From Acetomicrobium thermoterrenum DSM 13490 (GTDB lineage Bacteria; Synergistota; Synergistia; Synergistales; Acetomicrobiaceae), in assembly GCF_900107215.1 (NCBI RefSeq), contig NZ_FNPD01000006.1:49403-113402 (forward strand): a stretch of 64,000 bases of DNA. Direction: 5' to 3'. The notes beneath the pieces were generated by a model, which saw nothing but the letters and a program-made list of their open reading frames with translations, did not search any database and was not told where the DNA came from. The stretch's first letter is position 1; every line of letters begins with the position of its first letter. Made by a program: the position numbers and the translations under genes. Of this stretch, positions 4,925 through 49,968 are shown one piece after another.

Positions 4925-5119
4925 AATTTTTTTACGATTCTCCTTTGTGTGCTTTAATTTTATAAAGGTTTTTACAACACTTCATGGTAATATTATAATA
5001 TTAATAATTCCATGTCAAAGCAGCAGGATACCGTCTGCTCCTGTCCTCTTTGAGGCAGAAATGGCCTTTTGGGTGCGCCGTTTTAAAAATTGATATTTTG
5101 TAGAGGTGACTTCAGCCCA

Positions 5120-15330: not shown

Positions 15331-15543
15331 GTTGTCATAAATCCACATATATAATTTTTATTCCAGCTGATATGCGTATATTGTGGATAGATTCCGAGCT
15401 TCTTCGCACGTCTATCCACTGTGGAAAACTCAAGCAGATCGGCCTTGTTCCACGTTATCCACAATATCCACCGCACCTATTACTGTCACTACTATTTTTT
15501 ATATTATTAAAATAAAAGTAATAAATAGGAGGGCCATTGCAAA
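15331..15543. other. oriC part 2: DnaA boxes plus AT-rich DNA unwinding element between dnaA and dnaN
   Basis: Perfect box at 15455-15463, near-boxes at 15322-30, 15382-90 and 15464-72. AT-rich stretch at 15478-15530 lies immediately before the dnaN Shine-Dalgarno. Confidence 0.7.
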
Positions 15544-16698: not shown

Positions 16699-17752
16699 CC
16701 AGACCTATTGGCTGAATTATAAAAATTTAAAACCAGTGCGAATATCCTGGCATAAAGGCTTAAATGTCGTCGTAGGACCTAATGCATCGGGAAAGACTAA
16801 CACGCTTGAGGCTTTGTCCATGCTTTGCGGTTGGGGTCAGGTTCAGCGGGGAAAGCTAAGGGATCTCGTAAATTGGGATAGCCCCGGCCAGGCAAAGCTT
16901 TATTCGCAATTTGACGGAGAAGAGAACATATCCGTAGTGGTTTCGATACAGGACAAACGAACAATATCGGTTGCAGGAAAACAATGCAGCGCTTCAACGT
17001 TAAGGCTTCATGTTCCCTGTCTATCCTTTTGGAGTGACGACGTTCGGTTGATAGAAGGATCTCCTGCGATCAGAAGGAATTTCTTAAATCACCTCTGTGC
17101 TACTATAGTTCCGCTGTATGCCAGGAGATTATATGACTACAGAAAGCTCCTGCGCCATAAAAATTATATTCTACGGGCGGGCAGATACGACGATGCCGTG
17201 ATTAAAGCTATGGCACCCGTAGCTGCGTGGCTTTGGTCTTACAGGAGAAGCATTGTAGACCTGTTAAAGGTGGGACTTAAGGAGGTATCGTCCCATTTGG
17301 TCGAGTTCGACTTTGAAGTCGACATCGAAGAGGGAAACAAGGATTATTATGAAGATCCCTTAGAGGCTTTTTATGAATCCCTTGCCTTCTTTAAAAAAGA
17401 AGAAATTGCCCGAAAAGTTTCCTTGGTGGGACCCCATAGAGACGATTTGAGAATAACGGTAAAGGGAAGGCCTGCATTTCAGGCCTTAAGCAGAGGGCAG
17501 AGAAGAAAGCTTGCTGTTGCTTTTATGATGGCATCAGCAAAGGTCGTCGAGTATAAGCTGAAAAGAAGTCCTATAATATTATTGGACGAGGTGACGGCCG
17601 AGCTGGATTGGGAAGGTAAAGAGCAGTTGATAAAGGCGCTGGTTGAGAGCAACTGGCAAGTCATAACTGCCACGGCCGATGAACAGTTAGGCTATATTGA
17701 GGATTTTCCGGCAAAGGTTTGGCATATATGTCGAGGAGGTTTATCCGCATAG
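16688..17752 (+). CDS. recF: DNA replication and repair protein RecF
   Basis: Walker A GPNASGKTN and Walker B/D-loop LLDEVTAELD. Start overlaps the dnaN end. Confidence 0.9.
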   Translation: MWFSQTYWLNYKNLKPVRISWHKGLNVVVGPNASGKTNTLEALSMLCGWGQVQRGKLRDLVNWDSPGQAKLYSQFDGEENISVVVSIQDKRTISVAGKQCSASTLRLHVPCLSFWSDDVRLIEGSPAIRRNFLNHLCATIVPLYARRLYDYRKLLRHKNYILRAGRYDDAVIKAMAPVAAWLWSYRRSIVDLLKVGLKEVSSHLVEFDFEVDIEEGNKDYYEDPLEAFYESLAFFKKEEIARKVSLVGPHRDDLRITVKGRPAFQALSRGQRRKLAVAFMMASAKVVEYKLKRSPIILLDEVTAELDWEGKEQLIKALVESNWQVITATADEQLGYIEDFPAKVWHICRGGLSA

Positions 17753-19639
17753 ATGATATATAAGGACGAAAGAAATTTCGATGTTATAGTGGTGGGAGCA
17801 GGGCATGCCGGATGTGAGGCCGCTTTAGTTTCGGCGAGGATGGGGGCGCGAACCCTCCTTCTCAATTTGTATCTGGATAATATTGCATTGATGCCCTGTA
17901 ATCCCTCGATAGGCGGTCCGGCCAAAGGGCATATTACGAGAGAGATAGACGCCTTGGGCGGAGAACAGGCAAAGGCAGCCGATGCCTCTACCATTCATAT
18001 CAGATGGCTGAATACTTCAAAAGGGCCTGCTGTCAGGGCGCTTAGGGTACAGTGTGATTTGTCGGATTACCATAAATACATGAGAAATACCTTGGAGACT
18101 ACAATTAACCTTTATGTCCACCAAGCTCTGGTAACGGACCTTTGGGTGGAGAAGGGAAGGGTTAGAGGAGTAAAGACATGGTTGGGAGAGGAATATTATT
18201 CCCCCTGTGTGATAATAACCACGGGTCCTTATACGAATGGCAGGGTATTTATAGGTTCGCACAGCTTTCCATCGGGGCCATTGGGCCAGATGGCCTCTTT
18301 AGAGTTATCAAACTCATTAAAACGAATAGGTTTCATAATGGGAAGATTGAGAACTGATACCACACCAAGACTTCATGCTGATAGTATAGATTTTACTTCT
18401 TTAACTAAACAGGATTCTGCAGATGAACCATTATGTTTCAGCCACTGGGGGATACCGCGGATCTATAGTGGCTATTCCTGTTATTTAACGAGGTCGACGG
18501 GGAAGACGCATGAGATAATAAAGTACTCTCTTACCCGTTCTCCCCTGGCAAAGGGAGAGATAAATAGTCCCGGGCCCAGATACTGTCCTTCTATTGAAGA
18601 TAAGGTCATGAGGTTTCCTGAGAAGGAATCTCATCCCATATTTTTGGAGCCCACCTGCCGTCATTCGAAGGAAATTTATATGCAAAACTTCTCCACAAGC
18701 TTGCCCTATGATGTGCAGGTGGAAATGGTAAGAAGCGTTCCAGGATGTGAGAGGGCGCACATATTGAGACCGGGATACGCCATCGAATACGATTATTTTC
18801 CTCCGACACAACTTTATCCCTGGCTAGAGACGAAATTGGTAGAGGGGCTTTTCTTTGCAGGACAAATAAACGGCACATCCGGTTATGAGGAGGCGGCAGC
18901 CCAGGGATTGATGGCGGGCATTAATGCCGTACTGAAATTACGAAAAGAAGACCCCATAATACTAGGCAGAGAGGAAGCCTACATAGGCGTACTCATCGAT
19001 GATCTCGTGACCAAAGGGACGGAAGAGCCCTACAGGATGCTCACGAGCAGATGTGAATACAGACTGCTGATGAGACACGACAATGCTGACAAGAGGCTTG
19101 CGCCTATAGGAAGAAGGTTGGGGCTTATAGACGACGATAAATGGAGCCTCTTATTAAAGAAATGGAAGTCCATGGACGAGGAAATCGATCGCCTTAAGGG
19201 TACGAAGATTTATCCATCTTACGAGGTAAATACTTTATTATCTTCCTTAAATCAACCAAAGTTAGAAGAAACCGTAAGCGCTTACGATTTACTCAAAAGG
19301 CCGGGAATTGACTACGATATTTTATATAAAATAGCTCCATTGGAAGAGAGTTTAAACGAAGAAATAAAATCCAGAATAGAGATCGAGGTCAAGTATTCTG
19401 GCTACATAGAAAGACAGACCAGCCTTGCTTCTAAATTGCAAAGGATAGAGCAATTACGCATACCTTTGGATTTAAATTACGACGAAATTAAGGGCCTTTC
19501 TTCCGAGGGAAAGGAGAAACTCAAAAAAATCCTGCCCGGCACTTTGGGGCAGGCAGGTAGAATATCGGGGGTAACGCCTTCCGACCTTCAAATTTTGTGG
19601 ATGTATTTGGAGATGAGGAGTAAAAATAAAGCGTCATGA
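17753..19639 (+). CDS. mnmG: tRNA uridine 5-carboxymethylaminomethyl modification enzyme MnmG (GidA)
   Basis: FAD-binding DVIVVGAGHAGCEAA. 628 aa. Translationally coupled to the recF stop. Confidence 0.95.
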   Translation: MIYKDERNFDVIVVGAGHAGCEAALVSARMGARTLLLNLYLDNIALMPCNPSIGGPAKGHITREIDALGGEQAKAADASTIHIRWLNTSKGPAVRALRVQCDLSDYHKYMRNTLETTINLYVHQALVTDLWVEKGRVRGVKTWLGEEYYSPCVIITTGPYTNGRVFIGSHSFPSGPLGQMASLELSNSLKRIGFIMGRLRTDTTPRLHADSIDFTSLTKQDSADEPLCFSHWGIPRIYSGYSCYLTRSTGKTHEIIKYSLTRSPLAKGEINSPGPRYCPSIEDKVMRFPEKESHPIFLEPTCRHSKEIYMQNFSTSLPYDVQVEMVRSVPGCERAHILRPGYAIEYDYFPPTQLYPWLETKLVEGLFFAGQINGTSGYEEAAAQGLMAGINAVLKLRKEDPIILGREEAYIGVLIDDLVTKGTEEPYRMLTSRCEYRLLMRHDNADKRLAPIGRRLGLIDDDKWSLLLKKWKSMDEEIDRLKGTKIYPSYEVNTLLSSLNQPKLEETVSAYDLLKRPGIDYDILYKIAPLEESLNEEIKSRIEIEVKYSGYIERQTSLASKLQRIEQLRIPLDLNYDEIKGLSSEGKEKLKKILPGTLGQAGRISGVTPSDLQILWMYLEMRSKNKAS

Positions 19640-20124
19640 GGAGGAAAATAAGAGAACCAAAACACATAGCCGAGGTCATTGATAAGGCTTCATCGGTAAA
19701 CCTGAAGAATTTTCTGGAGTTTTATAAAGTAAGCAGTGCATGGCCTGAACTTGCAGGCAGAGTGTCGAGCAGGTCAAGACCTGTTAGTTTGTTAAAGGGA
19801 AAACTGAAGATTGTAGCCGATTCTCCATCTGTGGCTCAGGAAATCATGATGATGTCGGGGAGAATAATTTCCGAAGCCCTCTCCAAGGGCGTTAAGATCG
19901 AGTCGGTCTTGGTTAATATCGGTAGAGTGAAACCTATTGTCGGATCCCGATCTTTGAATGAAGGCAACCGTCACCGGTTTAAGCCGATTTTAAGGGGTTA
20001 CTCGACAGATGATATAGAAAGGGTAAAAAACAGATTCAATCAGAAAGGCCTGCCTAAAGATGTGTTAGATGGACTTTGCAGGCTATATATAGCTTATAAC
20101 AGAAGGTTTAATTCCTTAAAATAA
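19636..20124 (+). CDS. DUF721 (DciA-like) protein, the conserved recF/gyrB-neighbourhood helicase-operator family
   Basis: SAWPELAGRVSSRSRPVSLLKGKLKIVADSPSVAQEI follows the DUF721 pattern (W..i.G.....rP..l..g.L.v.v.s..wa.el). ATGA overlap with mnmG. Confidence 0.6.
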   Translation: MRRKIREPKHIAEVIDKASSVNLKNFLEFYKVSSAWPELAGRVSSRSRPVSLLKGKLKIVADSPSVAQEIMMMSGRIISEALSKGVKIESVLVNIGRVKPIVGSRSLNEGNRHRFKPILRGYSTDDIERVKNRFNQKGLPKDVLDGLCRLYIAYNRRFNSLK

Positions 20125-31598: not shown

Positions 31599-32411
31599 TT
31601 AGTCGACCAGCTTTAAAGGAACGGCAGCTTCCGGGGTGTTTACGTTAAACGTAAATGTTTCAGTATAATATAAGGATACTACTGTATCATTGTGCTCTTT
31701 ATAACCGATCGAGATGTCCTGTCCCGATACGAGCTCGAAATCTCCGCCGCGAAGGGAGACAACTATTCCGTCGTTTATCTGGGAAGATAGGATTATCCTG
31801 CTGTCGCCAAGAATGTCGCTGATTTTCTTGTAAAGGGGATAGCCTTCTCCTGCGGAGTATATCCTGGTATAAAGGGCCGGGCTTGCAACAAGGGCGTAGG
31901 GTCCTTCGATGCCGTGTAAGGTAAAATGCGCCCTTACCTGTGCCAAGCTTGCTAGGAGCTCCGATGGGTCTTGAAGGGGCAGTTCCTGGACAAACTCTTT
32001 TGAGGCAGCGAAAATGCCTTCTATGCAGGCATCGTCCAAACCATAGAATACTGCTTTATCTTCGAAGGATGCTATCTTTCTGGCTGCTTCTTCGAGACTA
32101 GAGAGATCGGGAGATTTGGAGCCTCTGGCTATACTGTCTAATTCGCATAGGGATAGCTCGAAGGGCACGTAAGCTTCTACCAAAGGCAAACTCAGGCGCG
32201 TAGCATAACAAACCTCTTTGGAGGCATCGCCCTTTTTAAGCTTTCCCGTCGGGTAGGCTGCATAGTCCCAACCCAGGGGGCCTATGAAATCCACAAACTT
32301 TCTTGCGGAGAGGTTCTGTTTTAATATCTCTTCCGATCTTTGGAGTATCTCTTCCCACGCAGGGTTATTTACGGGTGCAAGCTCTTTTTTTAAAAAATCC
32401 ATCTGATTCAT
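31599..32411 (-). CDS. Family-1 encapsulin nanocompartment shell protein (HK97 fold)
   Basis: Aligns along its full length to Thermotoga maritima encapsulin (FVDFIGPLGWDYAAYP, SLRGGDFELVSGQDISIGY, YYTETFTFNVNTPEA). Probable start is MDFLKK at 32402. Confidence 0.85.
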   Translation of the reverse strand: MNQMDFLKKELAPVNNPAWEEILQRSEEILKQNLSARKFVDFIGPLGWDYAAYPTGKLKKGDASKEVCYATRLSLPLVEAYVPFELSLCELDSIARGSKSPDLSSLEEAARKIASFEDKAVFYGLDDACIEGIFAASKEFVQELPLQDPSELLASLAQVRAHFTLHGIEGPYALVASPALYTRIYSAGEGYPLYKKISDILGDSRIILSSQINDGIVVSLRGGDFELVSGQDISIGYKEHNDTVVSLYYTETFTFNVNTPEAAVPLKLVD

Positions 32412-38793: not shown

Positions 38794-39736
38794 GTAAAGG
38801 CGCTATCTTTCCCTTGGGGGTAACATACCTTACCTCGCATTCGAGCCAAAAACCAGTCCTTTTGTGGACTGTCTCTCTAATCATGGAAATTAGCTCGAAG
38901 GCGTCTTTGCAGCGCCCGCCTCCCACATTAACTATAAAGTTGGCATGCATTGTGCTAACCATGAGCCCCCCCACGCGAAGTCCCTTCAAACCCGCCTCTT
39001 CTATTATCTTGCCCGGCGGGCCGCATACTTCGTATATTTCCGCATTGTTCGTGAAGACGGAGCCGCAACTTGGAAATTTAAGGGGAAATTTGCATTTTCG
39101 CTCGGCCAGTATGTCTAAAATGCGCCTTTTGATGTTTTTGGGGTCATCGCCTTTGCCCTCGATGCAGGCCTTGAGGATTACATAATTTTTTCTTTGAAAA
39201 AGAGAGCTGCGATAAGAAAATTCGCACTTATCGCGAGATATCTCGATGAGATTTGCACTTTCGTCCAAAGCCAAAACGCTTTTTACATTATCGCCGATTG
39301 AACGCCTCAAGCTGCCTCCATTCATGTAGATAAGCCCGCCCAAGGTACCAGGTATTCCGCTGACGTGCTCAAGTCCCGAGATGCCTTTTGAGGCGGCGAT
39401 CTTTGCCAAGCGAGGAGTCCACACACCGGCATCGGCGACAATACTTGTGCCGCTTGTCCGAACACTTGCGAAGGCTTTGCCGAATTTTGCCACTATGCCA
39501 CGCAGGCCTTCGTCGGGAAAAAGTATATTGCTTCCCCTTCCGATGACGATAAAGGGGATGTCCCACTCCTTGGCGAAGACGATCAACTTCTGCAGGGAGG
39601 GTATGTCGCTCACATTTACCAACACATCGGCAGGTCCGCCGATCTTCCAGCTCGAGTGGAGGGCCAGCGGCTCGTCTTTTTTTAGGTCCTTTATGCCTAT
39701 TTCTCTCAGTCTGTTGGCCAATATTTCAAGTTTCAA
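38780..39736 (-). CDS. murB: UDP-N-acetylenolpyruvoylglucosamine reductase
   Basis: FAD-binding PCMH domain (WKIGGPADVLV, IGRGSNILF) and C-terminal MurB domain. Confidence 0.85.
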   Translation of the reverse strand: MKLEILANRLREIGIKDLKKDEPLALHSSWKIGGPADVLVNVSDIPSLQKLIVFAKEWDIPFIVIGRGSNILFPDEGLRGIVAKFGKAFASVRTSGTSIVADAGVWTPRLAKIAASKGISGLEHVSGIPGTLGGLIYMNGGSLRRSIGDNVKSVLALDESANLIEISRDKCEFSYRSSLFQRKNYVILKACIEGKGDDPKNIKRRILDILAERKCKFPLKFPSCGSVFTNNAEIYEVCGPPGKIIEEAGLKGLRVGGLMVSTMHANFIVNVGGGRCKDAFELISMIRETVHKRTGFWLECEVRYVTPKGKIAPLHEFL

Positions 39737-39928
39737 TTCTATCCCTCATGTCTGCTTTGTATGTGAGATGCTCGACATTTCGTCTCGTAATAGGATATCA
39801 AACTTTCGTCATATTTCTAGGGGGAACTTCTCGAAAAAAAAGCTTCCTTCCAGAGCGCGATTTATCCTCATTAATATAATACAATATACAGATAATTTAC
39901 TTTTAAAGCGTAGTATAATATAAAAAAC

Positions 39929-40462
39929 ATGTTACTAGTCAAACATATCACTATCACTAAAGAAGGGAAAGAGGTGAGGTGTGTGACTAAAGGCACTAAA
40001 GAAGTCGAGCTCGACATTAAGGAGCTAGAGGATATCGTAAACAAGGCTAAGGAAGAGAATTTAGGTTTAATACCTCTGCTCCAGAGAACCCAGGAGGTAA
40101 TCGGCTATTTGCCGAAGGAGACCCTGGTAGTATTGTCGGAGATGTTGCACCTTCCCTACAGCAAGGTCTTCGGAGTAGCTACATTTTATGCACAGTTCCA
40201 TTTGACGCCAAGAGGACGTCACGTGATCCAACAATGCGACGGTACTGCCTGCCATGTCAAGGGAGGTCCCAGGATAAGGCGTGTCATAGAGGAAAAATTG
40301 GGCATCTCTCCCGGCGAAACTACCGAGGATTTGAAGGCTACATACGAGATCGTCTATTGTTTGGGTTCCTGCGGCCTGGCGCCAGCTGCAATGATCGATG
40401 GCAAGGTGATTGGAAGGCTGACTCAGGAGAAAATGAAGAGAATTTTAGATTCGATGGAGTGA
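39929..40462 (+). CDS. NuoE/HoxE-like [2Fe-2S] thioredoxin-fold subunit (StnA/HndA-like)
   Basis: CDGTACHVKG....CLGSCGLAPA four-cysteine motif. Confidence 0.8.
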   Translation: MLLVKHITITKEGKEVRCVTKGTKEVELDIKELEDIVNKAKEENLGLIPLLQRTQEVIGYLPKETLVVLSEMLHLPYSKVFGVATFYAQFHLTPRGRHVIQQCDGTACHVKGGPRIRRVIEEKLGISPGETTEDLKATYEIVYCLGSCGLAPAAMIDGKVIGRLTQEKMKRILDSME

Positions 40463-40472
40463 GGGGAGCGAA

Positions 40473-40874
40473 ATGTGCAGCTTTAAGTTGAAAGGCCCCG
40501 AGGATCTTGAGAAGTTGGCCGAAGAGGCCAGGAAGGAGCTGGTAATTAGGGAGGGTGCTGAATTTACGGTAAAAGTCTTCATCGGATCGCTAAATAACAG
40601 AGAGACATATAAAAAAGTGGCCAAGGCCTTTGTGGATGAAACGAAAAGGGCTAACGTCAGAGCCAGGGTGATAATTGCAGAGGGTGAAGCTGCTTCTGGT
40701 TTCGACCCCCTCGTCGAGATAAATACACCGCGGGACGGCGTTGTTCTTTACGCAAACATCACTCCCGACAAAGTTCCCATCCTGGTAAGAGAGCATTTGG
40801 TAAGGGGAAAAATTGTTTCTGAGTGGATCATCTCTCAGAAGCGCAGCCAGCATGTGCTCTTTAGCTGGCATTAA
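40473..40874 (+). CDS. Small HndB-like thioredoxin-fold protein lacking cluster-binding cysteines
   Basis: Sits between the NuoE-like and NuoF-like genes, as hndB does in hnd operons. Only one Cys in 133 aa. Confidence 0.35.
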   Translation: MCSFKLKGPEDLEKLAEEARKELVIREGAEFTVKVFIGSLNNRETYKKVAKAFVDETKRANVRARVIIAEGEAASGFDPLVEINTPRDGVVLYANITPDKVPILVREHLVRGKIVSEWIISQKRSQHVLFSWH

Positions 40875-40902
40875 TTTCTAATGATATATTGGAGAGATTG
40901 TC

Positions 40903-43900
40903 ATGTCAGTTAATTATCGTGCAAATATTTTGTGTTGCAGAGGTACGAGTTGTACGGCGGGCGGATCCCGTGAGATATTGGAATCCTTTAGAGAACAAAT
41001 AAAGTTGCATGACCTAGAAGATGAGGTCTCCCTTTCCTTTTCCGGTTGTCACGGGTTGTGCTCCATAGGTCCTATCGTGGTGATATATCCGGAGGATATA
41101 TTTTATTGTCAAGTAGAGCCAGAAGATGTGCCTGAAATAGTGGAGAAAACCCTTATTCGGGGCAAATTGGTGGATCGACTTTTGTTTAAAGATCCTATAA
41201 CGTATGAAGCTATCCCTCACTATCATCAGATTCCCTTTTACATGAATCAGACGAGAATTTTGTTGAGAAATTGTGGCCTCATAAATCCGGAACGCATCGA
41301 GGAATACATAGCAAGAGAAGGTTACCAGGGTTTGGCCAAGGCGCTTTATAAAATGTCTCCGCAACATGTCATAGAAGAAGTAAAAAGCTCAAATTTGAGA
41401 GGGCGAGGAGGCGGCGGTTTCCCAACGGGGGTTAAATGGGATTTAACAAGAAAAAACCCCGCGGAACCTAAATACGTGATTTGCAACGCCGACGAAGGGG
41501 ATCCGGGAGCCTTCATGGATCGAAGCTTGATCGAGGGAGATCCTCATGCTTTGATCGAAGGGATGCTCATCGCAGGCTATGCTATAGGAGCGCAAAAAGG
41601 ATTCATTTACTGTAGGGCCGAATACCCTTTGGCCATACAGAGGCTGAAAATAGCCATTGACCAGGCTAAGGAATATGGTTTGTTGGGAGAAGGCATTTTA
41701 GGTTCCAACTTTAATTTCGACATAGAAATAAAGGAAGGCGCCGGAGCCTTCGTCTGTGGCGAAGAGACGGCCTTGATTGCCTCTATAGAGGGCCGAAGGG
41801 GAGAGCCCAGGCCGCGGCCACCCTTTCCCGCAGAAAGGGGTCTCTGGGACAAGCCGACGAATATAAACAACGTAAAAAGCTACGCCTTCGTCCCCCAAAT
41901 CATTTTAAACGGTCATGAGTGGTTTTCCTCCATCGGCACGGAAAAAAGCAAGGGGACGGCAGTGTTTGCCCTGACCGGCAAGGTAAAAAACACCGGATTG
42001 CTTGAAATTCCAATGGGAACGACTATAGGGGAAATCATTTTCGATGTGGGAGAAGGTGTGGCCAAGGACAGGCAGTTCAAGGCAGTGCAAACGGGAGGCC
42101 CTTTGGGAGGATGTCTTCCCTCTGACGCTTTAAACCTCCCCGTCGATTTCGATTCCCTCACGGCTTCCGGCGCCCTGATGGGTTCCGGCGGAATGATCGT
42201 CGTGGATGAGACTACCTGCATGGTGGAGCTCGCTAGGTTCTTCCTGCAGTTTGCCGTGGCTGAATCCTGCGGGCAATGCACCCCCTGTCGGGTTGGCGGA
42301 AACAAGATGCTCGAGATACTCACGCGGATAACAAAAGGACAGGGCAAGATGGAAGATTTGGATATGCTGGAAGAGATAGCGAAGTTCATGAAAAAAGCTT
42401 CTCTCTGTGCTCTCGGACAAGGTGCTCCAAATCCGGTGTTGTCGACGCTCCGTTATTTTAGAGATGAATACGAAAGGCATATATTGGACTTAAGATGTCC
42501 TGCTGGGGCGTGTACGACTCTTGCGCCCTCCCCCTGTCAAAGTGCCTGCCCTGCAGAGGTAAAAATTCCCATCTATGTTTCTTTAATATCGGAAGGAAGG
42601 TATGACGAAGCGCTGGATATACACAGGGCATCCAATCCCTTCCCTTCCGTTTGTGGGCGGGTTTGTCCCTCTTTCTGCGAAGATAAATGTAGGAGAGGAG
42701 AGGTCGATGAACCCGTTGCAATAAGAGATTTGAAGCGCTTCATGGCCGATCGCGAATCTGAAGAATGGTTCCCTAAAGCTTACGAACCAGATAAAGGAAA
42801 AAGCGTAGGTATAGTTGGGGGCGGACCGGGAGGCCTTACCGCAGCTTTAAGATTGGCTCAACTTGGATATGAAGTTTGCATTTATGAAGAAAGCTCGGAA
42901 CTGGGCGGCATGATGAGGTGGGGCATTCCCGATTACAGGTTGCCCAAGGACGTGTTGAGAAAGGAAATAAATTCGATCTTGAACGTCGGGAAAATCGATG
43001 TCAAGTTAAATACTAAAGTAAGTCGCGATATCACAATTGAAGACCTGTTAAAAACTCATGATGCCCTTTTGCTGGCCATAGGGGCACAGGGCTCCAGGGA
43101 TTTAGGAATTCCTGGCTATGAGCTTTCCGGCGTCGAAAGCGGCGTTTCCTTGCTGCGAAAGCTAAATATGGGCGATGACCTCTCCTTCGTCAAGGGTAAA
43201 AGGGTAGTAGTGGTAGGCGGAGGAAATGTCGCCATGGATGCCGCACGATCCCTTCTCAGGCTAGGGGCCAAGGAAGTTCACCTGGTCTATCGAAGGGAGC
43301 GCAAAGATATGCCTGCCCTTGTGGAAGAAGTCGAGGCTGCCGAGGAGGAGGGAATCCACTTCGACCTCAGCACACGCAGGTGGCGCAGACGGAGAATATC
43401 GGCAGAAGAGGAGAGGGTTATATTCCATTATTTAACATCTCCCGTAAAGGTGCTCGGAGAGAATGGAAGGGTTACAGGATTGCTTTGTCAAAAACTTAAA
43501 CTTCACGACGAAAGTGGTAAAAGCCAGTTCGATTCCTCGGCCAGGAAGGTCTCCTTTCCGGTGAAAGGAAGCGAGTTTGTTCTTGACGCTGATGTAATCG
43601 TTGCCGCCATAGGGCAAAAGGTAGAGCAACCCTCATTGGAGGATTTGGGCATCAAACAACACAGGAATGGCACGATCTTGGTAGATGAGAGGAGCTTGAT
43701 GACCAGTCGGGAGGGCGTATTTGCAGTTGGAGATGTAGTGTTGGGGCCAGCAAGCATAGTGGAAGCCGTCGGCCAGGGAAACAAAGCGGCACGGGCAATC
43801 GACAGGTTCCTAAGAGGGCTATCCCTTCCTGAACCGCCTTCATTTATCGAAAGACCGGAGCCGCAAAAGTATGAAATTTCCGAAGAAGATGCGGAGCGAC

Positions 43901-44037
43901 CGAGGGCTAAGACGTCCATATTGTCGCCCGAAACGAGGGTTTACGATTTCAGGGAGGTCAACTTGGGTTTTCCCAACGAAGCTGTGGCCAGGTCGGAAGC
44001 GAGAAGATGCCTTCGATGCGACCTGGAAGAGCGCTAA
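40903..44037 (+). CDS. Fusion protein: N-terminal [2Fe-2S] domain, NuoF-like NAD(H)/FMN/[4Fe-4S] module, 2x[4Fe-4S] ferredoxin, and GltD-like NAD(P)H/FAD oxidoreductase (StnB-like)
   Basis: GRGGGGFPTGVKW FMN site, SCGQCTPCR, CxxCxxC clusters, then GIVGGGPGGLTAA and VVVVGGGNVAMD dinucleotide folds typical of GltD/NfnB. Confidence 0.85.
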   Translation: MSVNYRANILCCRGTSCTAGGSREILESFREQIKLHDLEDEVSLSFSGCHGLCSIGPIVVIYPEDIFYCQVEPEDVPEIVEKTLIRGKLVDRLLFKDPITYEAIPHYHQIPFYMNQTRILLRNCGLINPERIEEYIAREGYQGLAKALYKMSPQHVIEEVKSSNLRGRGGGGFPTGVKWDLTRKNPAEPKYVICNADEGDPGAFMDRSLIEGDPHALIEGMLIAGYAIGAQKGFIYCRAEYPLAIQRLKIAIDQAKEYGLLGEGILGSNFNFDIEIKEGAGAFVCGEETALIASIEGRRGEPRPRPPFPAERGLWDKPTNINNVKSYAFVPQIILNGHEWFSSIGTEKSKGTAVFALTGKVKNTGLLEIPMGTTIGEIIFDVGEGVAKDRQFKAVQTGGPLGGCLPSDALNLPVDFDSLTASGALMGSGGMIVVDETTCMVELARFFLQFAVAESCGQCTPCRVGGNKMLEILTRITKGQGKMEDLDMLEEIAKFMKKASLCALGQGAPNPVLSTLRYFRDEYERHILDLRCPAGACTTLAPSPCQSACPAEVKIPIYVSLISEGRYDEALDIHRASNPFPSVCGRVCPSFCEDKCRRGEVDEPVAIRDLKRFMADRESEEWFPKAYEPDKGKSVGIVGGGPGGLTAALRLAQLGYEVCIYEESSELGGMMRWGIPDYRLPKDVLRKEINSILNVGKIDVKLNTKVSRDITIEDLLKTHDALLLAIGAQGSRDLGIPGYELSGVESGVSLLRKLNMGDDLSFVKGKRVVVVGGGNVAMDAARSLLRLGAKEVHLVYRRERKDMPALVEEVEAAEEEGIHFDLSTRRWRRRRISAEEERVIFHYLTSPVKVLGENGRVTGLLCQKLKLHDESGKSQFDSSARKVSFPVKGSEFVLDADVIVAAIGQKVEQPSLEDLGIKQHRNGTILVDERSLMTSREGVFAVGDVVLGPASIVEAVGQGNKAARAIDRFLRGLSLPEPPSFIERPEPQKYEISEEDAERPRAKTSILSPETRVYDFREVNLGFPNEAVARSEARRCLRCDLEER

Positions 44038-45752
44038 AGGAAGTGTTGACGATGTCTGATATTACCTTGGAAATTAACGGCAGGAAAGTTCAGGGGAGCT
44101 CGGGAGATACGATACTAAAGGTATGCGAGAAAAATGCTATTGTCGTGCCTACACTGTGTCATTTCGAGGGCCTTGCCGATATCGGAGTTTGCCGCATGTG
44201 TCTGGTTGAGGTAAAGGGCGCAAGAGGTCTCGTTCCAGCCTGCACAACGCAAGCTACGGATGGCATGGCGATAGTTACCGAAAACGATGAAATCAGGGAT
44301 CTCAGGCGTTCAAATCTCGAAATGCTCTTTTCCGAGCGAAACCATTTTTGCATGTTTTGCGAAAAGAGCGGAGATTGCGAACTTCAGAAATTGGCCTACG
44401 AGTACGGCTTGGACCACATCAGCTATGGTTTCTTTTGGCCCGAATTGCCCATGGATATCAGCAGAAAATATTTTTTATACGATCAAAACCGCTGTATTCT
44501 CTGCAGGAGATGTCTGAGGGCCTGCGAAGAGTTGGCCGGACATTCCGTTTTGACAGTTCGAGACAGGGGGCCCAAAAGTATGATATGTGCTGACGTCGAC
44601 CTTCCCTTCATCGAATCTACCTGTGTCTCTTGCGGAACCTGTTTGCAAGTCTGCCCAACCGGGGCCTTGGCGGACAGGAAGAGCACATACATCGGAAGGC
44701 AAGAACATATGACTAAAACGAGAAGTGCCTGTGCCTTCTGTAGCGTTGGCTGTGAAGTAGAGATATCCTCGCGAGACGGCGAGCCATTGCGAATAGAAGG
44801 AATATTCGGCCAGGGGCCTACTTCCGGGATTTTGTGTTCAAAGGGAAGGTTTGAGCCCCTTTTCGAGGTAAATAAAAGGCTGGACAGACCGCTATTGAGG
44901 GAAGATGAGGGCAAAAGAAGCTTAAATCTAAATGAAGCCTTGTCTGTTTTAGCAAAAAAGATCAAAGAATGGGGAATTAATTCCTTTGCGGGATTGATAT
45001 CCCCTCGAGCCACAAACGAAGCTGCGTTTCAATTCAAAATGCTGTTTGGCGATAACGTCTTTTTAATCGATTCCTTTTCTGTGCCCCTTGGCAATGCCTC
45101 TATTGAAGAAATCGACGATGCAGATTGTATAGTCGTTGTCGGTGCAAATCTGGACGAGGAATTTAAGGCCCTAAGTTCCTTCGTCAAGAGGGGCGCGAAT
45201 CTAGGATCGACCGTCGTAGTCATGGGTTCTGCCGGGGCAAAGGTAGATATTCGTGCGACATATCGCTTTCATGATGAAGATATTGACTCTCTGAGCGAGG
45301 TCATGGGAAGGTTCTCTAATCCCCTTGTCGTCTATGGGCCGGGGACGAAAAGATCGGTTATGGAGTTTTTATGGGGGCTACGTCCCGGCGTCAGACAGCT
45401 TGGCCTGGCTCGAGGAAGCAACATTCGCGGTATTGAAAAGTTGAAGATCAAACCTTGGAAGAAAGACAAAGGGTTCAGAGGCTTATACGCTCTGCTGGGC
45501 GATTTCGAAGTTTCCGACGATTTGTTGGGACAACTGGGCAATGCCGAATTCCTTGCGGTACAGTCTTGCTACGAAAATGAAGCGGTAAATTACGCCGATT
45601 TGGCCTTGCCTTCCAGGCTTTGGTTCGAACGTTCGGGCACTTATATAAATACCGAAGGAAAAGTTAGACATCTCGAGGCCATACCTGAAATTGCGCTGTC
45701 CCTCCCTTCGGATGAGGAAATCTTAAAGGGTTTAATTAAACTGTTGAGTTAA
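44007..45752 (+). CDS. NuoG-like Fe-S subunit with a truncated molybdopterin-oxidoreductase domain (StnC-like; no catalytic module)
   Basis: 2Fe-2S N-terminus (CHFEGLADIGVCRMC), NuoG HxxxC and 4Fe-4S motifs, and an MopB Fe4S4 start ACAFCSVGC...LCSKGRF. Only 581 aa. Likely start is MSDITLEING at 44052. Confidence 0.75.
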   Translation: MPSMRPGRALKEVLTMSDITLEINGRKVQGSSGDTILKVCEKNAIVVPTLCHFEGLADIGVCRMCLVEVKGARGLVPACTTQATDGMAIVTENDEIRDLRRSNLEMLFSERNHFCMFCEKSGDCELQKLAYEYGLDHISYGFFWPELPMDISRKYFLYDQNRCILCRRCLRACEELAGHSVLTVRDRGPKSMICADVDLPFIESTCVSCGTCLQVCPTGALADRKSTYIGRQEHMTKTRSACAFCSVGCEVEISSRDGEPLRIEGIFGQGPTSGILCSKGRFEPLFEVNKRLDRPLLREDEGKRSLNLNEALSVLAKKIKEWGINSFAGLISPRATNEAAFQFKMLFGDNVFLIDSFSVPLGNASIEEIDDADCIVVVGANLDEEFKALSSFVKRGANLGSTVVVMGSAGAKVDIRATYRFHDEDIDSLSEVMGRFSNPLVVYGPGTKRSVMEFLWGLRPGVRQLGLARGSNIRGIEKLKIKPWKKDKGFRGLYALLGDFEVSDDLLGQLGNAEFLAVQSCYENEAVNYADLALPSRLWFERSGTYINTEGKVRHLEAIPEIALSLPSDEEILKGLIKLLS

Positions 45753-45791
45753 ACCGTAACATTAAATTAGTATATGTCCTTAAAATATAAT

Positions 45792-45828
45792 ATATGGGAA
45801 TGTCTCAGACATTCCCATATATTTTTAG
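45792..45828 (+). terminator. Rho-independent terminator after the stn-like operon
   Basis: ATATGGGAATGTCT/AGACATTCCCATAT perfect palindrome followed by ATTTTT. Confidence 0.65.
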
Positions 45829-45865
45829 GATATATATTATTATTTTATTTAAAAGCTATTATCGC

Positions 45866-46024
45866 TTATGCCGTCAATGAAACCTGACTCATCTCAACGG
45901 GTTGCATATCTTTAATCCAATCGCCGTTCTCGTCTTTAAACCATGTGCCATAGCTTCCAAATATTTCGGTAAAAAGAGTATCTTGTAATATAAACCAGTT
46001 ACCGCTTTTATCTTTCAACCACAT
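45866..46024 (-). CDS. Small orphan protein (52 aa) with a tandem W-x-KD-x-x-G-[ND]-W repeat
   Basis: GGGAGG Shine-Dalgarno sits 9 nt before ATG at 46024. Translation is MWLKDKSGNWFILQDTLFTEIFGSYGTWFKDENGDWIKDMQPVEMSQVSLTA. Below the 60-aa cut-off of the ORF track. Confidence 0.4.
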   Translation of the reverse strand: MWLKDKSGNWFILQDTLFTEIFGSYGTWFKDENGDWIKDMQPVEMSQVSLTA

Positions 46025-46332: not shown

Positions 46333-46524
46333 TTGAAATTTTCGTCTAATAACGATGATTTTGCTTTTTTGGGTGACGTTGTGGCTTTGATCAATGCAGA
46401 GAAAGGTGCGTTGATCTACATGCGGAATGGGAAGATACTGGAGACAGATAAAAGCGTCAAGGCATTGAAGAGAAAATACGAGGAAATCTTGGATTATTAT
46501 CAAAAAAATTGGCGGGATAGATAA
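46333..46524 (+). CDS. Small protein immediately upstream of gyrB, possibly DUF370/RemB-like
   Basis: 63 aa. [18 protein letters not shown] loosely fits the DUF370 core. The slot directly before gyrB is conserved for this family in Firmicutes. Confidence 0.35.
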
Positions 46525-46570
46525 AACCAAGACTATGGGATATGAAATGCAAAGGGGAAGTGGTGAGTCG

Positions 46571-48484
46571 ATGAAGACAACAGTCGCTGATTTAAAGGAA
46601 TATACTGCAAACGATATACAGATTTTGGAAGGCCTTGAGGCGGTCCGCCGCAGGCCGAGCATGTACATCGGCGATACGGGCATCAGAGGCTTGCATCATC
46701 TGGTCTACGAAGTGGTGGATAACGCCATAGATGAAGCAATGGCGGGATATTGCGATCAGGTGAGCGTGATCGTTTATCCCGATGGCAGCGTGTCCGTGGA
46801 GGATAACGGAAGGGGTATACCCGTAGATACCCATCCGAAGGTGAATAAGCCTGCGGCGGAAGTGGTGTTGACGATTCTCCACGCCGGGGGCAAATTCGAC
46901 AACAAAGCCTACCAGGTATCGGGTGGGCTGCACGGTGTCGGCGTATCCGTCGTCAACGCCCTTTCGACATGGCTTGAGCTTATCATATGGCGTGACGGGA
47001 TGGAGTGGCATCAACGCTATTCCAGGGGTGTTCCCCAGTGCGAATTGACCCCTGTGGGCAAGGCCGATCGGACTGGCACTAAAGTGCACTTCTTGCCCGA
47101 CGATACTATCTTTGAAGAAAAGGATTTTTCCTTTGACGTTTTAAGCTCCAGGTTGCGGGAAATTGCCTTTTTGGTGCCTGGCTTGAAGATAGATCTGAAG
47201 GATTTGAGGAACAACAAATCTGTTGCCTTTAAATACGATGGCGGTGTGATTTCCTTTGTGGAGTATCTGAACAGAGACAAAAACCCTCTGTTCAAGGAAC
47301 CAATTTACATAAAGGGAGATAAGGACGATGTCCTTGTGGAAGTTGCCCTCCAGTACAACGATTCCTTTCAGGAGAGGGTCTTTGCCTTCGCCAACCTAAT
47401 CCATACAGTAGAAGGCGGCACACATGTGGTGGGTTTCAGGACGGCTTTGACCAGGGCTGTAAACGAAATGGCGAGGAGGCAGAAACTTTTAAAGGACAAG
47501 GATGCAAACTTGTCGGGCGATGATTTGAAAGAGGGGCTTACTGCGATAATATCGGTTAAGCTTAAGGAGCCCCAATTCGAAGGACAGACCAAGACGAAGC
47601 TTGGTAACAGCGATGTCAGGGGTATAGTGGATTCGATCGTTTACGATGGGCTGATGGCCTTTTTGGAGGAAAAGCCCGATTGTTTGAGGCCTATCGTTGA
47701 AAAGGCCATAAAGGCAAGGCAGGCGAGGGATGCAGCGAAAAAGGCGAGGGAGCTGGTCAGGCGAAAATCGGCCTTTGGAGGGCTGGACTTGCCGGGCAAG
47801 CTGGCCGACTGTTCCAGCAAAGATCCCGAAGAGTGCGAGCTTTACATAGTGGAGGGAGATTCGGCGGGAGGCAGCGCAAAACAGGGCAGGAACAGGACCT
47901 TTCAAGCGATACTACCCCTTCGCGGCAAGATACTCAACGTCGAAAAGGCGCGCCTCGACAAAGTTCTGTCAAATGCCGAAATCAGGACGATTATTCAAGC
48001 CCTAGGTTGCGGAATAGGGGAGGATTTCGACGTCAATAAACTTCGCTACCATAGGGTCATAATAATGACCGATGCCGACGTCGACGGCGCACATATCAGG
48101 ACCCTTTTGCTCGCCTTCTTTTATCGTTTCATGCCGGGAATAATCGAGGGAGGGCACCTCTATATCGCTCAGCCCCCTCTTTATAGGGTACAGGCGGGCA
48201 AAAGCGAATATTACTGTTACTCCGATAAGGAGTTGCGCAATCTGGCGGACAAACTTGCTAACAAGAAGATATCGGTGCAGCGTTACAAGGGCCTTGGCGA
48301 GATGAACCCCGAACAGCTGTGGAAGACGACGATGGATCCCAACGAAAGAATACTGAAGCGCGTTGATGTAGAAGATGCCCTCGCTGCCGACGAGTATTTC
48401 ACGATATTGATGGGAGACAAGGTGGAGCCCCGAAGGGAGTTTATAGAGAGCCACGCTAACGAAGTGAGAAATTTGGATGTATAA
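46571..48484 (+). CDS. gyrB: DNA gyrase subunit B
   Basis: [38 protein letters not shown], Toprim [10 protein letters not shown] and C-terminal [10 protein letters not shown]. The ATG at 46571 gives an N-terminal length comparable to B. subtilis GyrB; 46535 is the alternative. Confidence 0.95.
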
Positions 48485-48699
48485 TTTGCTATAATGACTA
48501 AAGTAATAGATTTTTCGATAAAGGGGCTACATTATATCAGATATATTTCACGAAAGAGTATACCTGCGTGTTAATGAAAGATTCTAAAGATGAGCACAGC
48601 TTTTGCAAGCTCGAGAGATTTGGGAGCGCGGGTTTGGTTCCCCTGGATTAACCTTGAATAAATAATTTTGGAAGTCTTTGCGGCTTAAAGATATAAAAT

Positions 48700-48732
48700 A
48701 AAGGGAGGAGGATTTCCTCCCTTTATTTTATA
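48700..48732 (+). terminator. Rho-independent terminator downstream of gyrB
   Basis: AAAGGGAGG-aggattt-CCTCCCTTT followed by ATTTTAT. Confidence 0.65.
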
Positions 48733-48765
48733 GTTTTTATTATCTTCGCGAAGGAGGAAGGCCAC

Positions 48766-49968
48766 ATGGAAATTTCGTACGAAAGATTGGTTTCTAAGGC
48801 AGAAGATGCGGTCGATCGATATTCGGGCGAAGCTGTCGCTTTGAGCGATTATCTGGCAGAACATCCCGAGGTCTCGGAAAGGGAATTTCAGTCTAGCAAA
48901 AGACACGCGGAGCTGCTCCGCCGTCACGGTTTTGAGGTCGAATACCCCTTTTTAGACATTCCCACGGCATTTTGTGCAAAAAAATCCAACGGAGAGGGTG
49001 CGAAGGTGGCTTTATTGGTCGAATACGACGCCCTTCCCGAGATCGGCCATGCTTGCGGGCATTGTCTCCATGGTGCCATGTCTACCCTTGCCGGCATAGG
49101 GCTGGCTCCTCTCCTGGATGAGGGAGATATCAAAGGCACCTTATTTGTTATAGGGACTCCAGCAGAGGAGACGAACGGAGCGAAGGTCACTATGGCGGAA
49201 AAGGGCGTGTTCGATGATCTTGATCTTGCCGTCATGATTCACTCTTCCGGGAATAAAAGCTACGTCAGATACAGGAGCCTCGCCATGGATGCCATGGAAT
49301 TTAGCTTCAAAGGAAAACCCGCCCATGCGGCAAGTTGCCCCTGGGAGGGCCGTAACGCCTTGAATGGCGTTCAGCTGTTTTTTCACGCCCTGGACATGTT
49401 GCGCCAGCACATTCGATCGGAAGCGAGGATGCACGGGATAATACATAGAGGTGGCGATGCGCCAAATATCGTTCCGGAAGCTGCTGCCTGCAGATTTTAC
49501 TTCAGAGCGCCCACCAGGGCTTATCTGGATCATTTGGTAGAACGAATCAGGAAAATCTCCCTGGGCGCGGCCATGGCAACGGAGACGGAAGTAGAGATGA
49601 AGAACTTCGAATTTAGCTTCGACAATATGTTGAGCAACGAGGCGGCGGAAAGTAAGATGGAGGAAATAATGAAAGGCCTTGGCATAGAAATAAGCGAAGA
49701 GGAGGGTTATGAGGGTTCTTCCGACATGGGCAACGTGAGCCATCGCTGCCCCGCTTTGCAGCCAAAACTGGCTATAAGCGATGAACCTCTGGTGACCCAC
49801 AGTCGAGAGTTCGCAGAAGCAGTGACGACTTCCAGGGCGCACGAGGCTTTGATCTTAGGCAGCAGGGCTTTGGTCAGGATGGCCCTGGCCATTTATTGCG
49901 ACGGAGATCTTAGGAGGGCTGTCAGGGAGGATTTTGAAAGGGCCAAGCATGGGGAAGAACTTTTTTGA
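48766..49968 (+). CDS. M20D-family amidohydrolase (aminoacylase/hippuricase-like)
   Basis: HACGHCLHG and GTPAEE metal-binding motifs. Confidence 0.8.
   Translation: MEISYERLVSKAEDAVDRYSGEAVALSDYLAEHPEVSEREFQSSKRHAELLRRHGFEVEYPFLDIPTAFCAKKSNGEGAKVALLVEYDALPEIGHACGHCLHGAMSTLAGIGLAPLLDEGDIKGTLFVIGTPAEETNGAKVTMAEKGVFDDLDLAVMIHSSGNKSYVRYRSLAMDAMEFSFKGKPAHAASCPWEGRNALNGVQLFFHALDMLRQHIRSEARMHGIIHRGGDAPNIVPEAAACRFYFRAPTRAYLDHLVERIRKISLGAAMATETEVEMKNFEFSFDNMLSNEAAESKMEEIMKGLGIEISEEEGYEGSSDMGNVSHRCPALQPKLAISDEPLVTHSREFAEAVTTSRAHEALILGSRALVRMALAIYCDGDLRRAVREDFERAKHGEELF

Follow-up and report, generated by a model that had tools for sequence, protein, structure and literature searches.

A NuoF::GltD fusion in a Bfu-type operon of Acetomicrobium thermoterrenum orphaned from its hydrogenase genes

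Introduction

What might an operon do that encodes NuoE-, NuoF- and NuoG-like subunits with no catalytic gene beside them? The question is raised by four co-oriented genes at positions 39929-45752 of a 64-kb stretch of the genome of Acetomicrobium thermoterrenum DSM 13490 (Synergistota; contig NZ_FNPD01000006.1; the proteins of this strain include exact counterparts of the fusion and MurB sequences; the whole stretch of 64,000 nucleotides is called the window below). The genes are termed hydC', hydD', hydB' and hydA', and the product of hydB' fuses a NuoF-like module to a GltD-like flavoprotein module. The original prediction for this DNA assigned the operon to the Stn-type electron-bifurcating transhydrogenases, the NADH-dependent ferredoxin:NADP oxidoreductases of Sporomusa. 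The analysis described here shows that the locus encodes a module of the Bfu/HydABC type in which one domain has been replaced in a novel way and which has become separated from its hydrogenase.

To our knowledge, the Bfu-type enzymes (HydABC, HydABCSL and NfnABC) are the least understood electron-bifurcating class. All current models known to us take the C-terminal ferredoxin-like domain of BfuB to be the low-potential exit, and this is the domain that is replaced in HydB'.

Results and discussion

The fused NuoF::GltD subunit

The fusion (WP_091461387.1; 40903-44037; 1044 amino acids, aa) carries the database labels 'NuoF' or 'FAD-dependent oxidoreductase' and contains the Pfam domains Complex1_51K, NADH_4Fe-4S, Fer4_20 and Pyr_redox_2. 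Residues 5-541 align with HydB of the [NiFe]-hydrogenase HydABCSL of A. mobile (PDB 7t2r_B; E 5.9e-245, 818 bits), as against 671 bits for StnB (8oh5_B); the stretch 543-1041 corresponds to residues 102-567 in the A subunits 9bov_A and 8oh5_C. The best PDB matches of the GltD module are the inserts of the Nfn-Bfu A subunits (9bov_A, E 5.9e-113; 9n5u_A; 8oh5_C), with NfnB weaker (4ylf_B, E 1e-85). The module is circularly permuted as in StnC/NfnA: the segment SPE.R...F.EV...RCLxC, which comes first in NfnB/NfnL, comes last in the fusion, and RCLRC stands at the extreme C-terminus (...RRCLRCDLEER).

Alignment with a canonical Acetomicrobium HydB locates the replacement. Both CxxCxxCxxxCP motifs (clusters B3 and B4), which in canonical HydB follow ...RCPAKVCPAL, are missing from the fusion, where the junction ...RCPAGACTTLAPSPCQSACP... 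leads straight into GltD right after RCPAGAC. The GltD clusters start 8 residues past the last ligand of the B2/Zn site, at the point where the ferredoxin-like domain normally begins. No Fer4-type Pfam match was found in the fusion, and the StnB and HydB alignments stop at residue 541-542.

Ligand invariance was assessed across 25 family members of 58-85% identity. The ligands of B5 (C12, C17, C49, C53), of B1 (C456, C459, C462, C502) and of the B2/Zn site (C439, H526, C532, C537) are invariant, as are the eight GltD cluster cysteines (545, 549, 584, 588, 592, 596, 1036 and 1039). The Bfu-type motif PGAFMDRS, which gives A203 and M205 in the window protein, is likewise invariant, and the GltD module has kept the NADPH motifs GGGNVAMD and YRR. 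Judged by these residues, both the core that holds NAD(H), flavin mononucleotide (FMN) and B1 and the GltD module with its flavin adenine dinucleotide (FAD) and NADP(H) sites appear intact. Foldseek, run on an AlphaFold model, superimposed the GltD module on 9bov_A with a root-mean-square deviation of 3.6 Å over 505 columns; no PDB chain spanned both halves, each of which matched a different chain. Across the wide NuoF::GltD family, a GltD/NfnL-type module thus substitutes for the 2x[4Fe-4S] ferredoxin-reducing domain of HydB.

The gene set had been read as the Stn architecture. In Stn of S. ovata the GltD module comprises residues 102-565 of StnC/NfnA and lies inside the NuoG-like subunit (PMC10482914), and the C-terminal ferredoxin-like domain of StnB, with its Zn-stabilised linker, is the proposed ferredoxin site (PMC10482914, PMC7483475, PMC11829005). 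In the window operon GltD is carried by the NuoF-like subunit rather than the NuoG-like one, and the B3/B4 ferredoxin-like domain is absent from the fusion. The two architectures therefore differ at precisely these points.

The HydC', HydD' and HydA' subunits

Pfam searches verified the domain content of all four open reading frames (ORFs), each of which is intact; together with the PDB matches they bear out the predicted NuoE / NuoF::GltD / NuoG triad and its HndB-like companion. HydC' belongs to PF01257 (2Fe-2S_thioredx, E 2.7e-46) and carries four cysteines (CDGTAC...CLGSC) and the linker FYAQFHLTPRG. Its best PDB match is HydC of the A. mobile NiFe-HydABCSL (7t2r_C, E 8e-47), compared with E 2.3e-36 and 8.4e-42 for the StnA-type chains 8oh5_A and 9n5u_C. 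HydD' has no Pfam or NCBIfam match. It resembles the N-terminal domain of NfnB (9n5u_B, E 1.4e-7) and, by BLASTP, HydD of the canonical hydrogenase operon described below (E 7e-14), but contains only one cysteine, at position 2, the three cysteines of other HydD proteins being substituted.

HydA', deposited as 'formate dehydrogenase major subunit', comprises Fer2_4, NADH-G_4Fe-4S_3, two Fer4, Molybdop_Fe4S4 and a partial Molybdopterin domain (PF00384), and finds its best PDB match in A. mobile HydA (7t2r_A, E 2.5e-89). All ligands are kept for the [2Fe-2S] cluster A1, the His-ligated [4Fe-4S] cluster A2, the A3/A4 pair and A5. Pfam detected no GltD domain in HydA'. The protein had been described as 581 aa long and truncated. 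It is indeed short, but is likely to be 566 aa; orthologues adjacent to hydrogenase genes have 567-573 aa, so a length of ~570 aa is not special to the window locus, and alignment with these orthologues revealed no deletion.

The predicted lack of an H-cluster or intact Mo-site motif in the NuoG-like protein was confirmed by Pfam and PDB alignment. An [FeFe]-hydrogenase was rejected as a candidate identity, since the H-cluster domain PF02906 was not found in HydA' and its alignment with [FeFe] HydA is limited to the N-terminal iron-sulfur (FeS) domains, ~210 aa. The alpha subunit of a formate dehydrogenase (FDH) was rejected as well: the Cys/Sec-His loop (Sec, selenocysteine) is missing, the FdsA segment ...VCHsptg... 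lying opposite an alignment gap, Molydop_binding (PF01568) was not found by Pfam, PF00384 is partial, and the FDH alpha model TIGR01591 reaches 87 bits where its cut-off is 666. The molybdopterin-like domain is short and, by its residues, inactive. Neither the fusion nor HydA' scored above the cut-off of any NCBIfam equivalog; HoxE and HoxU were among the best NCBIfam hits, below threshold.

Relatives of the operon and loss of hydS and hydL

Full-length fusions form more than 120 clusters (90% identity) at 56-98% identity to HydB', mostly from Chloroflexi/Anaerolineae, with others from Synergistales and Poribacteria. In the nearest relatives beyond the clade of the window operon, a hydA of 567-573 aa is directly followed by hydS (~180 aa, Oxidored_q6) and hydL (~473 aa, HoxH/NiFeSe_Hases). 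Such hydSL-linked relatives comprise a Synergistales metagenome-assembled genome (L012, 72% identity), L001 and L002 (71%), the Poribacteria L003 and L004 (67%) and the Anaerolineales L005 and L006 (59%). The large subunit of L012 matches A. mobile HydL with E 1.6e-180. The closest relatives of the window operon, L007-L009 (98%) and L010 (85%), share its murB...gyrB synteny and have no hydSL. L011 (84%) has another upstream context; its contig ends 51 nucleotides past hydA', with a terminator-like hairpin and no hydS start in that stretch.

In a neighbour-joining tree of 35 fusions rooted with canonical HydB, the hydSL-less clade (bootstrap 100) is sister to L012 (100), followed by L001 (95), L003 (95) and L093 (100). 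Because this clade nests among hydSL-linked operons, the absence of hydSL is a secondary loss confined to the Acetomicrobium lineage. The same nesting (bootstrap 95-100), together with 7t2r_A, 7t2r_B and 7t2r_C as best PDB matches, indicates that the ancestor of the operon encoded a HydABCSL/Bfu-type [NiFe]-hydrogenase.

hydS and hydL were thus lost from the operon, and the remaining four genes are under purifying selection. Ratios of nonsynonymous to synonymous substitution rates (dN/dS) against L007 are 0.08 for hydC', 0.21 for hydD', 0.085 for hydB' and 0.23 for hydA'. In the comparisons with L010 and L011, synonymous sites have reached saturation (proportion of synonymous differences, pS, 0.76-0.92), with dN of 0.10 for hydB', 0.23-0.30 for hydA', 0.14-0.17 for hydC' and 0.22 for hydD'. 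All four ORFs are intact in every member of the clade.

The loss seems to have left a trace in HydA'. Among positions invariant in hydSL-linked HydA, 9 of 26 in the C-terminal domain are altered in the hydSL-less clade, versus 8 of 78 in the FeS domain, and the rate of the C-terminal domain relative to HydB' is ~1.5x that of hydSL-linked pairs. The altered residues show no convergence on those of canonical HydA. This preferential change is a sign of the lost partner; the C-terminal domain is nonetheless clearly constrained.

Two further features were noted among the relatives. An Arg-rich insertion of 21 aa (TRRWRRRRISAEEER, aa 821-841 of the fusion) occurs throughout the Synergistota clade, including the hydSL-linked L012 and L001, and is absent from the sequences of Poribacteria (L003) and Anaerolineales (L005). 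It is predicted to be disordered, the predicted local distance difference test (pLDDT) score falling below 50 at residues 822-833. In L093, a lineage sister to the Synergistota clade, a NiFe-type hydA is followed by an ORF for a HicB-like antitoxin (4955-5144) and no hydS before the contig ends soon after; the HicB-like ORF represents either an insertion or a second, independent loss of hydSL.

Proposed mechanism

The reading that we favour, at about even confidence, is that the four genes specify an NAD(H)/NADP(H) oxidoreductase that works on its own and may be coupled to ferredoxin; it would be an analogue of Stn in function and stand outside the Stn family. HydA', HydB' and HydC', with HydD', would form a stand-alone flavin/iron-sulfur complex. 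NAD(H) would react at the FMN of HydB' and NADP(H) at the FAD of the fused GltD, and electrons could pass reversibly from flavin to flavin by way of the mobile [2Fe-2S] cluster C1 of HydC' and then the two GltD [4Fe-4S] clusters. By this path the enzyme would link the NADH and NADPH pools as a transhydrogenase. Of the original prediction, the transhydrogenase-type role remains plausible because the NAD(H)/FMN and NADP(H)/FAD sites both appear intact; the assignment to Stn does not stand. The earlier guess at function may therefore be roughly right, and the family assignment is wrong.

A role for ferredoxin is suggested by analogy. In the A. mobile enzyme electrons follow the path FMN-B1-A1-A2-A3-S1-[NiFe], and A3 corresponds to the cluster at which ferredoxin has been proposed to react in monomeric FeFe hydrogenase (PMC8880783). 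Without HydS, the HydA' chain (B1-A1-A2-A3) would most plausibly end at a surface-exposed cluster that could trade electrons with ferredoxin. The complex might then catalyse a reaction of three substrates, as Nfn does, in which the sites for NADP(H) and ferredoxin have exchanged places compared with Stn, a step that we hold tentatively and with clearly less than even confidence.

The occurrence of fusions without BfuA or any catalytic gene (L095), or with metV/metF only, is in favour of a stand-alone oxidoreductase. Several points weigh against it. HydA' retains five clusters and its entire C-terminal domain, which in relatives is in contact with HydSL, so a hydrogenase partner could act in trans; HydS (SDX86266.1) and HydL (SDX86249.1) are in fact encoded on another contig of this genome. 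We found no biochemical precedent for NADP(H) on the branch that normally has low potential and leads to ferredoxin. The AlphaFold2 model of the fusion (predicted template modelling score 0.60, mean pLDDT 78.5) is too uncertain to place GltD on the core, and the direction and coupling of electron flow are purely inferred.

Hydrogenase genes in the window and elsewhere in the genome

The operon had been thought to lack a catalytic gene nearby. Pfam searches of ~50 ORFs found no hydrogenase or FDH gene in the 64-kb window, only housekeeping genes (among them dnaA, dnaN, recF, mnmG, murB, gyrB, peptidases, transporters, encapsulin and AddAB). Searched by tblastn with the HydS and HydL of relatives, the full 64 kb yielded no match better than E 0.098 and no remnant of hydSL, and no hyp or hydP genes are linked to the operon. 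The absence holds for the window only, because a canonical HydABCSL operon is present elsewhere in the genome, and the operon may yet be connected with a hydrogenase.

The presence of HydSL in this genome was established by exact-sequence cluster look-ups. Contigs with the exact A. thermoterrenum HydL carry a complete canonical operon, hydC-hisK-hydD-hydB(597)-hydA(693)-hydS-hydL-hydP, in which the 597-aa HydB has Fer4 domains; a like operon is found at L019. HydSL therefore has a diaphorase of its own. In a genome scan, none of 80 loci around A. mobile-type HydL had GltD on HydB (A. mobile, A. thermoterrenum and A. hydrogeniformans were not among the loci returned), which indicates that the canonical and GltD-type operons are distinct lineages.

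Genes with a sensory [FeFe]-hydrogenase-like domain (Fe_hyd_lg_C) and with HATPase and PHP domains flank the canonical operon (L173, 1160-4005) and the GltD-type hydrogenase operon of L001 (1-4236), where they probably encode H2-sensing regulators. They are absent around the window operon.

These findings bear on the main rival explanation, in which HydA'B'C' recruits the canonical HydSL to form a further hydrogenase, one with NAD(H) and NADP(H) as the redox partners of H2 in place of NAD(H) and ferredoxin. Both subunits are available in the genome, the closest relatives beyond the clade of the operon are all hydSL-linked, HydS and HydL of GltD-type operons share 50-63% identity with their canonical counterparts, and the FeS ligands and entire C-terminal domain of HydA' have been kept under purifying selection. 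We nevertheless consider such borrowing unlikely. The canonical operon already supplies HydA, HydB and HydC, and HydA' shares no more than ~37% identity with canonical HydA across 402 aa and is ~125 aa shorter. The positions invariant in hydSL-linked HydA have changed mostly in the C-terminal domain, with no approach to the canonical sequence; all three diverged lineages have a terminator immediately behind hydA', and hyp and hydP are not linked.

The wider NuoF::GltD family

A metagenome scan, confined to the best 80 loci of at least 600 matches and hence a sample rather than a census, yielded the fusion in about 58 of the 80. Downstream of it lie a NiFe-type HydA with HydSL (L101, L104, L124), a HoxU-like protein with HoxYH (L138, L139, L147), an FeFe HydA (L111 and L141, in each case verified with Pfam), a Sec-split FDH (L097), a HoxU-like and a GltB-like protein (L128), or HdrA/MvhD-like proteins (L094, L121). 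In L100, L108 and L114 the fusion adjoins metV/metF (methylene-tetrahydrofolate reductase) with no BfuA/NuoG-like gene, an arrangement that suggests an NAD(P)H-linked methylene-tetrahydrofolate reductase complex and resembles the location of stn beside metVF in S. ovata. The fusion of L095 has nothing recognisable downstream. The FDH alpha subunit of L097 (11061-13763) is divided into two ORFs of 354 and 543 aa, and the break is probably an in-frame TGA selenocysteine codon.

This variety of partners lends some credit to a second rival explanation, that HydA' docks another unlinked module (FDH, aldehyde oxidoreductase or other redox partner) in a Bfu-type enzyme whose third substrate is neither H2 nor ferredoxin. 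Fusions do pair with FeFe HydA, Sec-FDH, HdrA/MvhD-like and GltB-like proteins, and two putative FDHs and a formate hydrogenlyase have been reported from the genome of A. hydrogeniformans (PMC6025917). Every other partner seen, though, is encoded beside the fusion; sequence and tree alike class HydA' as a NiFe-type adaptor, and nothing in the window hints at a partner. We regard this explanation as quite improbable.

The junction itself is widespread. A 181-aa junction query returned 134 representatives (50% identity) at E up to 1e-30, and among its matches were stand-alone proteins of the PRK12771 type that consist of a B1-type domain and GltD. Examples are P0254 and P0275 (NCBIfam NF009410), of ~580-650 aa, which contain only the NuoF C-terminal [4Fe-4S] domain and GltD, joined as in the fusion. 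Because these proteins share it, the NuoF/GltD junction may predate the full fusion. A literature search found no functional account of a NuoF::GltD fusion; the sole trace was the HydDB rule 'GltD but not NuoF', from which it follows that such downstream proteins have already been seen.

A wider generalisation, which must be called speculative and on balance rather unlikely, is that the NuoF::GltD fusions are an unrecognised Bfu branch in which NADP(H) on GltD replaces ferredoxin on the branch leaving FMN/[2Fe-2S]. In its members, H2, formate or other substrates would be coupled to NAD(H) together with NADP(H). What Acetomicrobium carries would then be a natural hydrogenase-deleted version, a new type of transhydrogenase that would use ferredoxin, if at all, via HydA', as the mirror image of Stn. 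The same logic predicts that the hydSL-linked relatives are hydrogenases coupling H2 to NAD(H) and NADP(H) without ferredoxin.

Rejected readings: Stn membership and decay

True membership of Stn/NfnABC, with NADPH reacting via the NuoG-like subunit and ferredoxin reduced at the NuoF-like C-terminus, was rejected and is very improbable. The same three protein families are present, including a NuoE-like subunit with one [2Fe-2S] cluster (HydC'; PF01257, four cysteines), GltD is closest to that of the Nfn-Bfu A subunits and identically permuted, and no catalytic gene is linked. Two defining features of the architecture are contradicted: GltD is on HydB' instead of in the NuoG-like subunit, and the NuoF-like subunit lacks its C-terminal 2x[4Fe-4S] (B3/B4) domain. 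Moreover, the HydB' core and HydA' score best to NiFe-HydABCSL subunits, the tree places the operon among hydSL-linked ones, and no single PDB chain covers both halves of the fusion. That the operon is a decaying, non-functional remnant of a hydrogenase operon is scarcely credible: hydSL and the HydD' cysteines have been lost and HydA' evolves somewhat faster than in hydSL-linked relatives, but four intact ORFs in at least four lineages with saturated synonymous sites, dN/dS far below 1 for every gene, conservation of all cofactor ligands, and intact ribosome-binding sites (RBSs) and terminator speak against it, and dN/dS and the intact ligands rule out a pseudogene cluster.

Operon layout and genomic surroundings

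Two gene starts differ from those of the mechanical ORFs (Table 1). For hydC' (mechanical ORF 39929-40462) a GTG at 39983 behind the RBS AGAGGTGAGG is likelier, in agreement with relatives called at 159 aa. For hydA' (mechanical ORF 44007-45752) an ATG at 44052 behind the RBS AAAGGAAG is likelier; it lines up with Met1 of 7t2r_A and with the gene calls in relatives. The strong terminator expected at the end of the operon was found as a perfect hairpin with a T-run, and equivalent hairpins stand 3' of hydA' in L010 and L011. An ORF of 180 aa at 39381-39923 was rejected as spurious, as it overlaps murB in antisense and has no Pfam match.

Table 1 Features of the hydC'D'B'A' operon (window coordinates).
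Feature	Coordinates	Strand	Description
hydC'	39983..40462	+	NuoE/BfuC-like, [2Fe-2S] C1 cluster, 159 aa from likely GTG start
hydD'	40473..40874	+	HndB/HydD-like thioredoxin-fold protein, 133 aa
hydB' core, aa 1-541	40903..42525	+	N-terminal thioredoxin-like [2Fe-2S] domain (B5), FMN/NAD(H) site, B1, B2/Zn-site linker
GltD/NfnL-like module of hydB' fusion, aa 542-1044	42526..44037	+	2x[4Fe-4S], FAD, NADP(H) site
Arg-rich insertion in NADPH-binding domain, DLSTRRWRRRRISAEEERV	43363..43425	+	~21 aa
hydA'	44052..45752	+	NuoG/BfuA-like adaptor, 566 aa
Bidirectional intrinsic terminator hairpin, operon end	45789..45823	.	16-bp perfect stem, loop 3, T-run on + strand

The window spans the region of the chromosomal origin, with dnaA, dnaN, recF and mnmG/gidA clustered at 13990-19639. 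gyrB (46535-48484) lies ~27 kb beyond this cluster, directly after the operon. Between the terminator and gyrB is a small ORF of 52 aa, rich in W/G repeats (45866-46024, minus strand; MWLKDKSGNWF...), and a second of 63 aa (46333-46524, plus strand) lies just upstream of gyrB. ORFs equivalent to both are called in L007 (98%) and L010 (85%). In L007, which is A. hydrogeniformans-like, a gene for a 722-aa methyl-accepting chemotaxis protein (17636-19804) stands between gyrB and an M20 peptidase gene and is absent from the window (48484-48766), which points to an indel between close relatives. A gene for an encapsulin shell protein (Linocin_M18) is located at 31599-32411 on the minus strand; an EncFtn-like cargo gene adjoins its counterpart in a 98% relative.

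Implications

The conserved replacement by GltD makes it testable whether the FMN/B1/C1 site can drive a nicotinamide acceptor rather than ferredoxin. The Acetomicrobium version, which has lost the hydrogenase, is still selected and occurs in cultured strains, is the simplest and most tractable family member to purify, and its complex could reveal whether a BfuBC core joined to GltD suffices as a transhydrogenase. The labels 'formate dehydrogenase major subunit' for HydA' and 'NuoF' or 'FAD-dependent oxidoreductase' for the fusion distort metabolic reconstructions of H2-producing Synergistota. The surprise lies more in the NuoF::GltD family thus exposed than in the single Acetomicrobium operon.

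Comparison with known systems

The A. mobile HydABCSL (7t2r/7t30; Feng et al. 2022, PMC8880783), from the same genus, scores highest among solved structures for HydA', HydC' and the core of HydB'. The two systems have in common B1, FMN, C1, B5, the B2 site and a five-cluster HydA (A1-A5). In contrast to A. mobile, the window operon has no hydS, hydL, hisK or hydP, GltD takes the place of B3/B4, HydA' is ~125 aa shorter, and HydD' is without cluster-binding cysteines. The Bfu flavobicluster consists of FMN, the [4Fe-4S] cluster B1 and the [2Fe-2S] cluster C1 on the flexibly linked C-terminal domain of BfuC (PMC11829005), and the window proteins carry the ligands for it. The B2 site, the B5 domain and the residues A202/M204 (A. 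mobile numbering) are also found in the fusion; in place of the B3/B4 path to ferredoxin there are two GltD [4Fe-4S] clusters. The Bfu classification of Schut et al. 2022 requires clusters B2-B5 in BfuB and has NADP modules borne only by BfuA.

Stn/NfnABC (8oh5 of S. ovata, 9bov of C. saccharolyticus, 9n5u of T. sibiricus) resembles the window operon in combining NuoE-, NuoF-, NuoG- and GltD-like parts with no other catalytic site. Its GltD is the closest relative of the window module and shares the permutation (RCLxC after the flavin domains), and an inactive relic resembling FDH makes up its NuoG-like part. The two systems probably overlap in their substrates, NAD(H), NADP(H) and perhaps ferredoxin. 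In Stn, however, GltD is inserted past the [2Fe-2S] domain of the NuoG-like subunit and electrons pass to B1. Since GltD occupies the position of the ferredoxin domain on HydB', the NADP(H) site of the window complex would lie on the opposite side of FMN from that of Stn. Kremp et al. list A. mobile (Anamo_1498) as the only Acetomicrobium with Stn (PMC7483475).

NfnAB/NfnSL (T. maritima 4ylf, P. furiosus 5jca) shares with the fusion a GltD-like large subunit with 2x[4Fe-4S], FAD and an NADPH site. It differs in that its FAD bifurcates, its partner is the small NfnA/S subunit, NuoEFG-type parts are absent and the N-terminal RCLxC is not permuted. SfrAB of Geobacter sulfurreducens has neither an FMN/NAD(H) domain nor a NuoE-like subunit. 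It combines a GltD-like NADPH subunit with an inactive NuoG/FDH-like FeS subunit, a likeness noted previously (PMC7483475). The PRK12771-type proteins share the B1-type-to-GltD junction and, like SfrAB, lack both an FMN/NAD(H) domain and a NuoE-like subunit. Finally, HndABCD and HoxEFU display the gene order of the window operon, with a NuoE-like protein, a small thioredoxin-like protein (HndB), a NuoF-like protein and an FeS/catalytic subunit; unlike the window operon, they co-encode a hydrogenase subunit, have no GltD module and possess a cluster-binding HndB.

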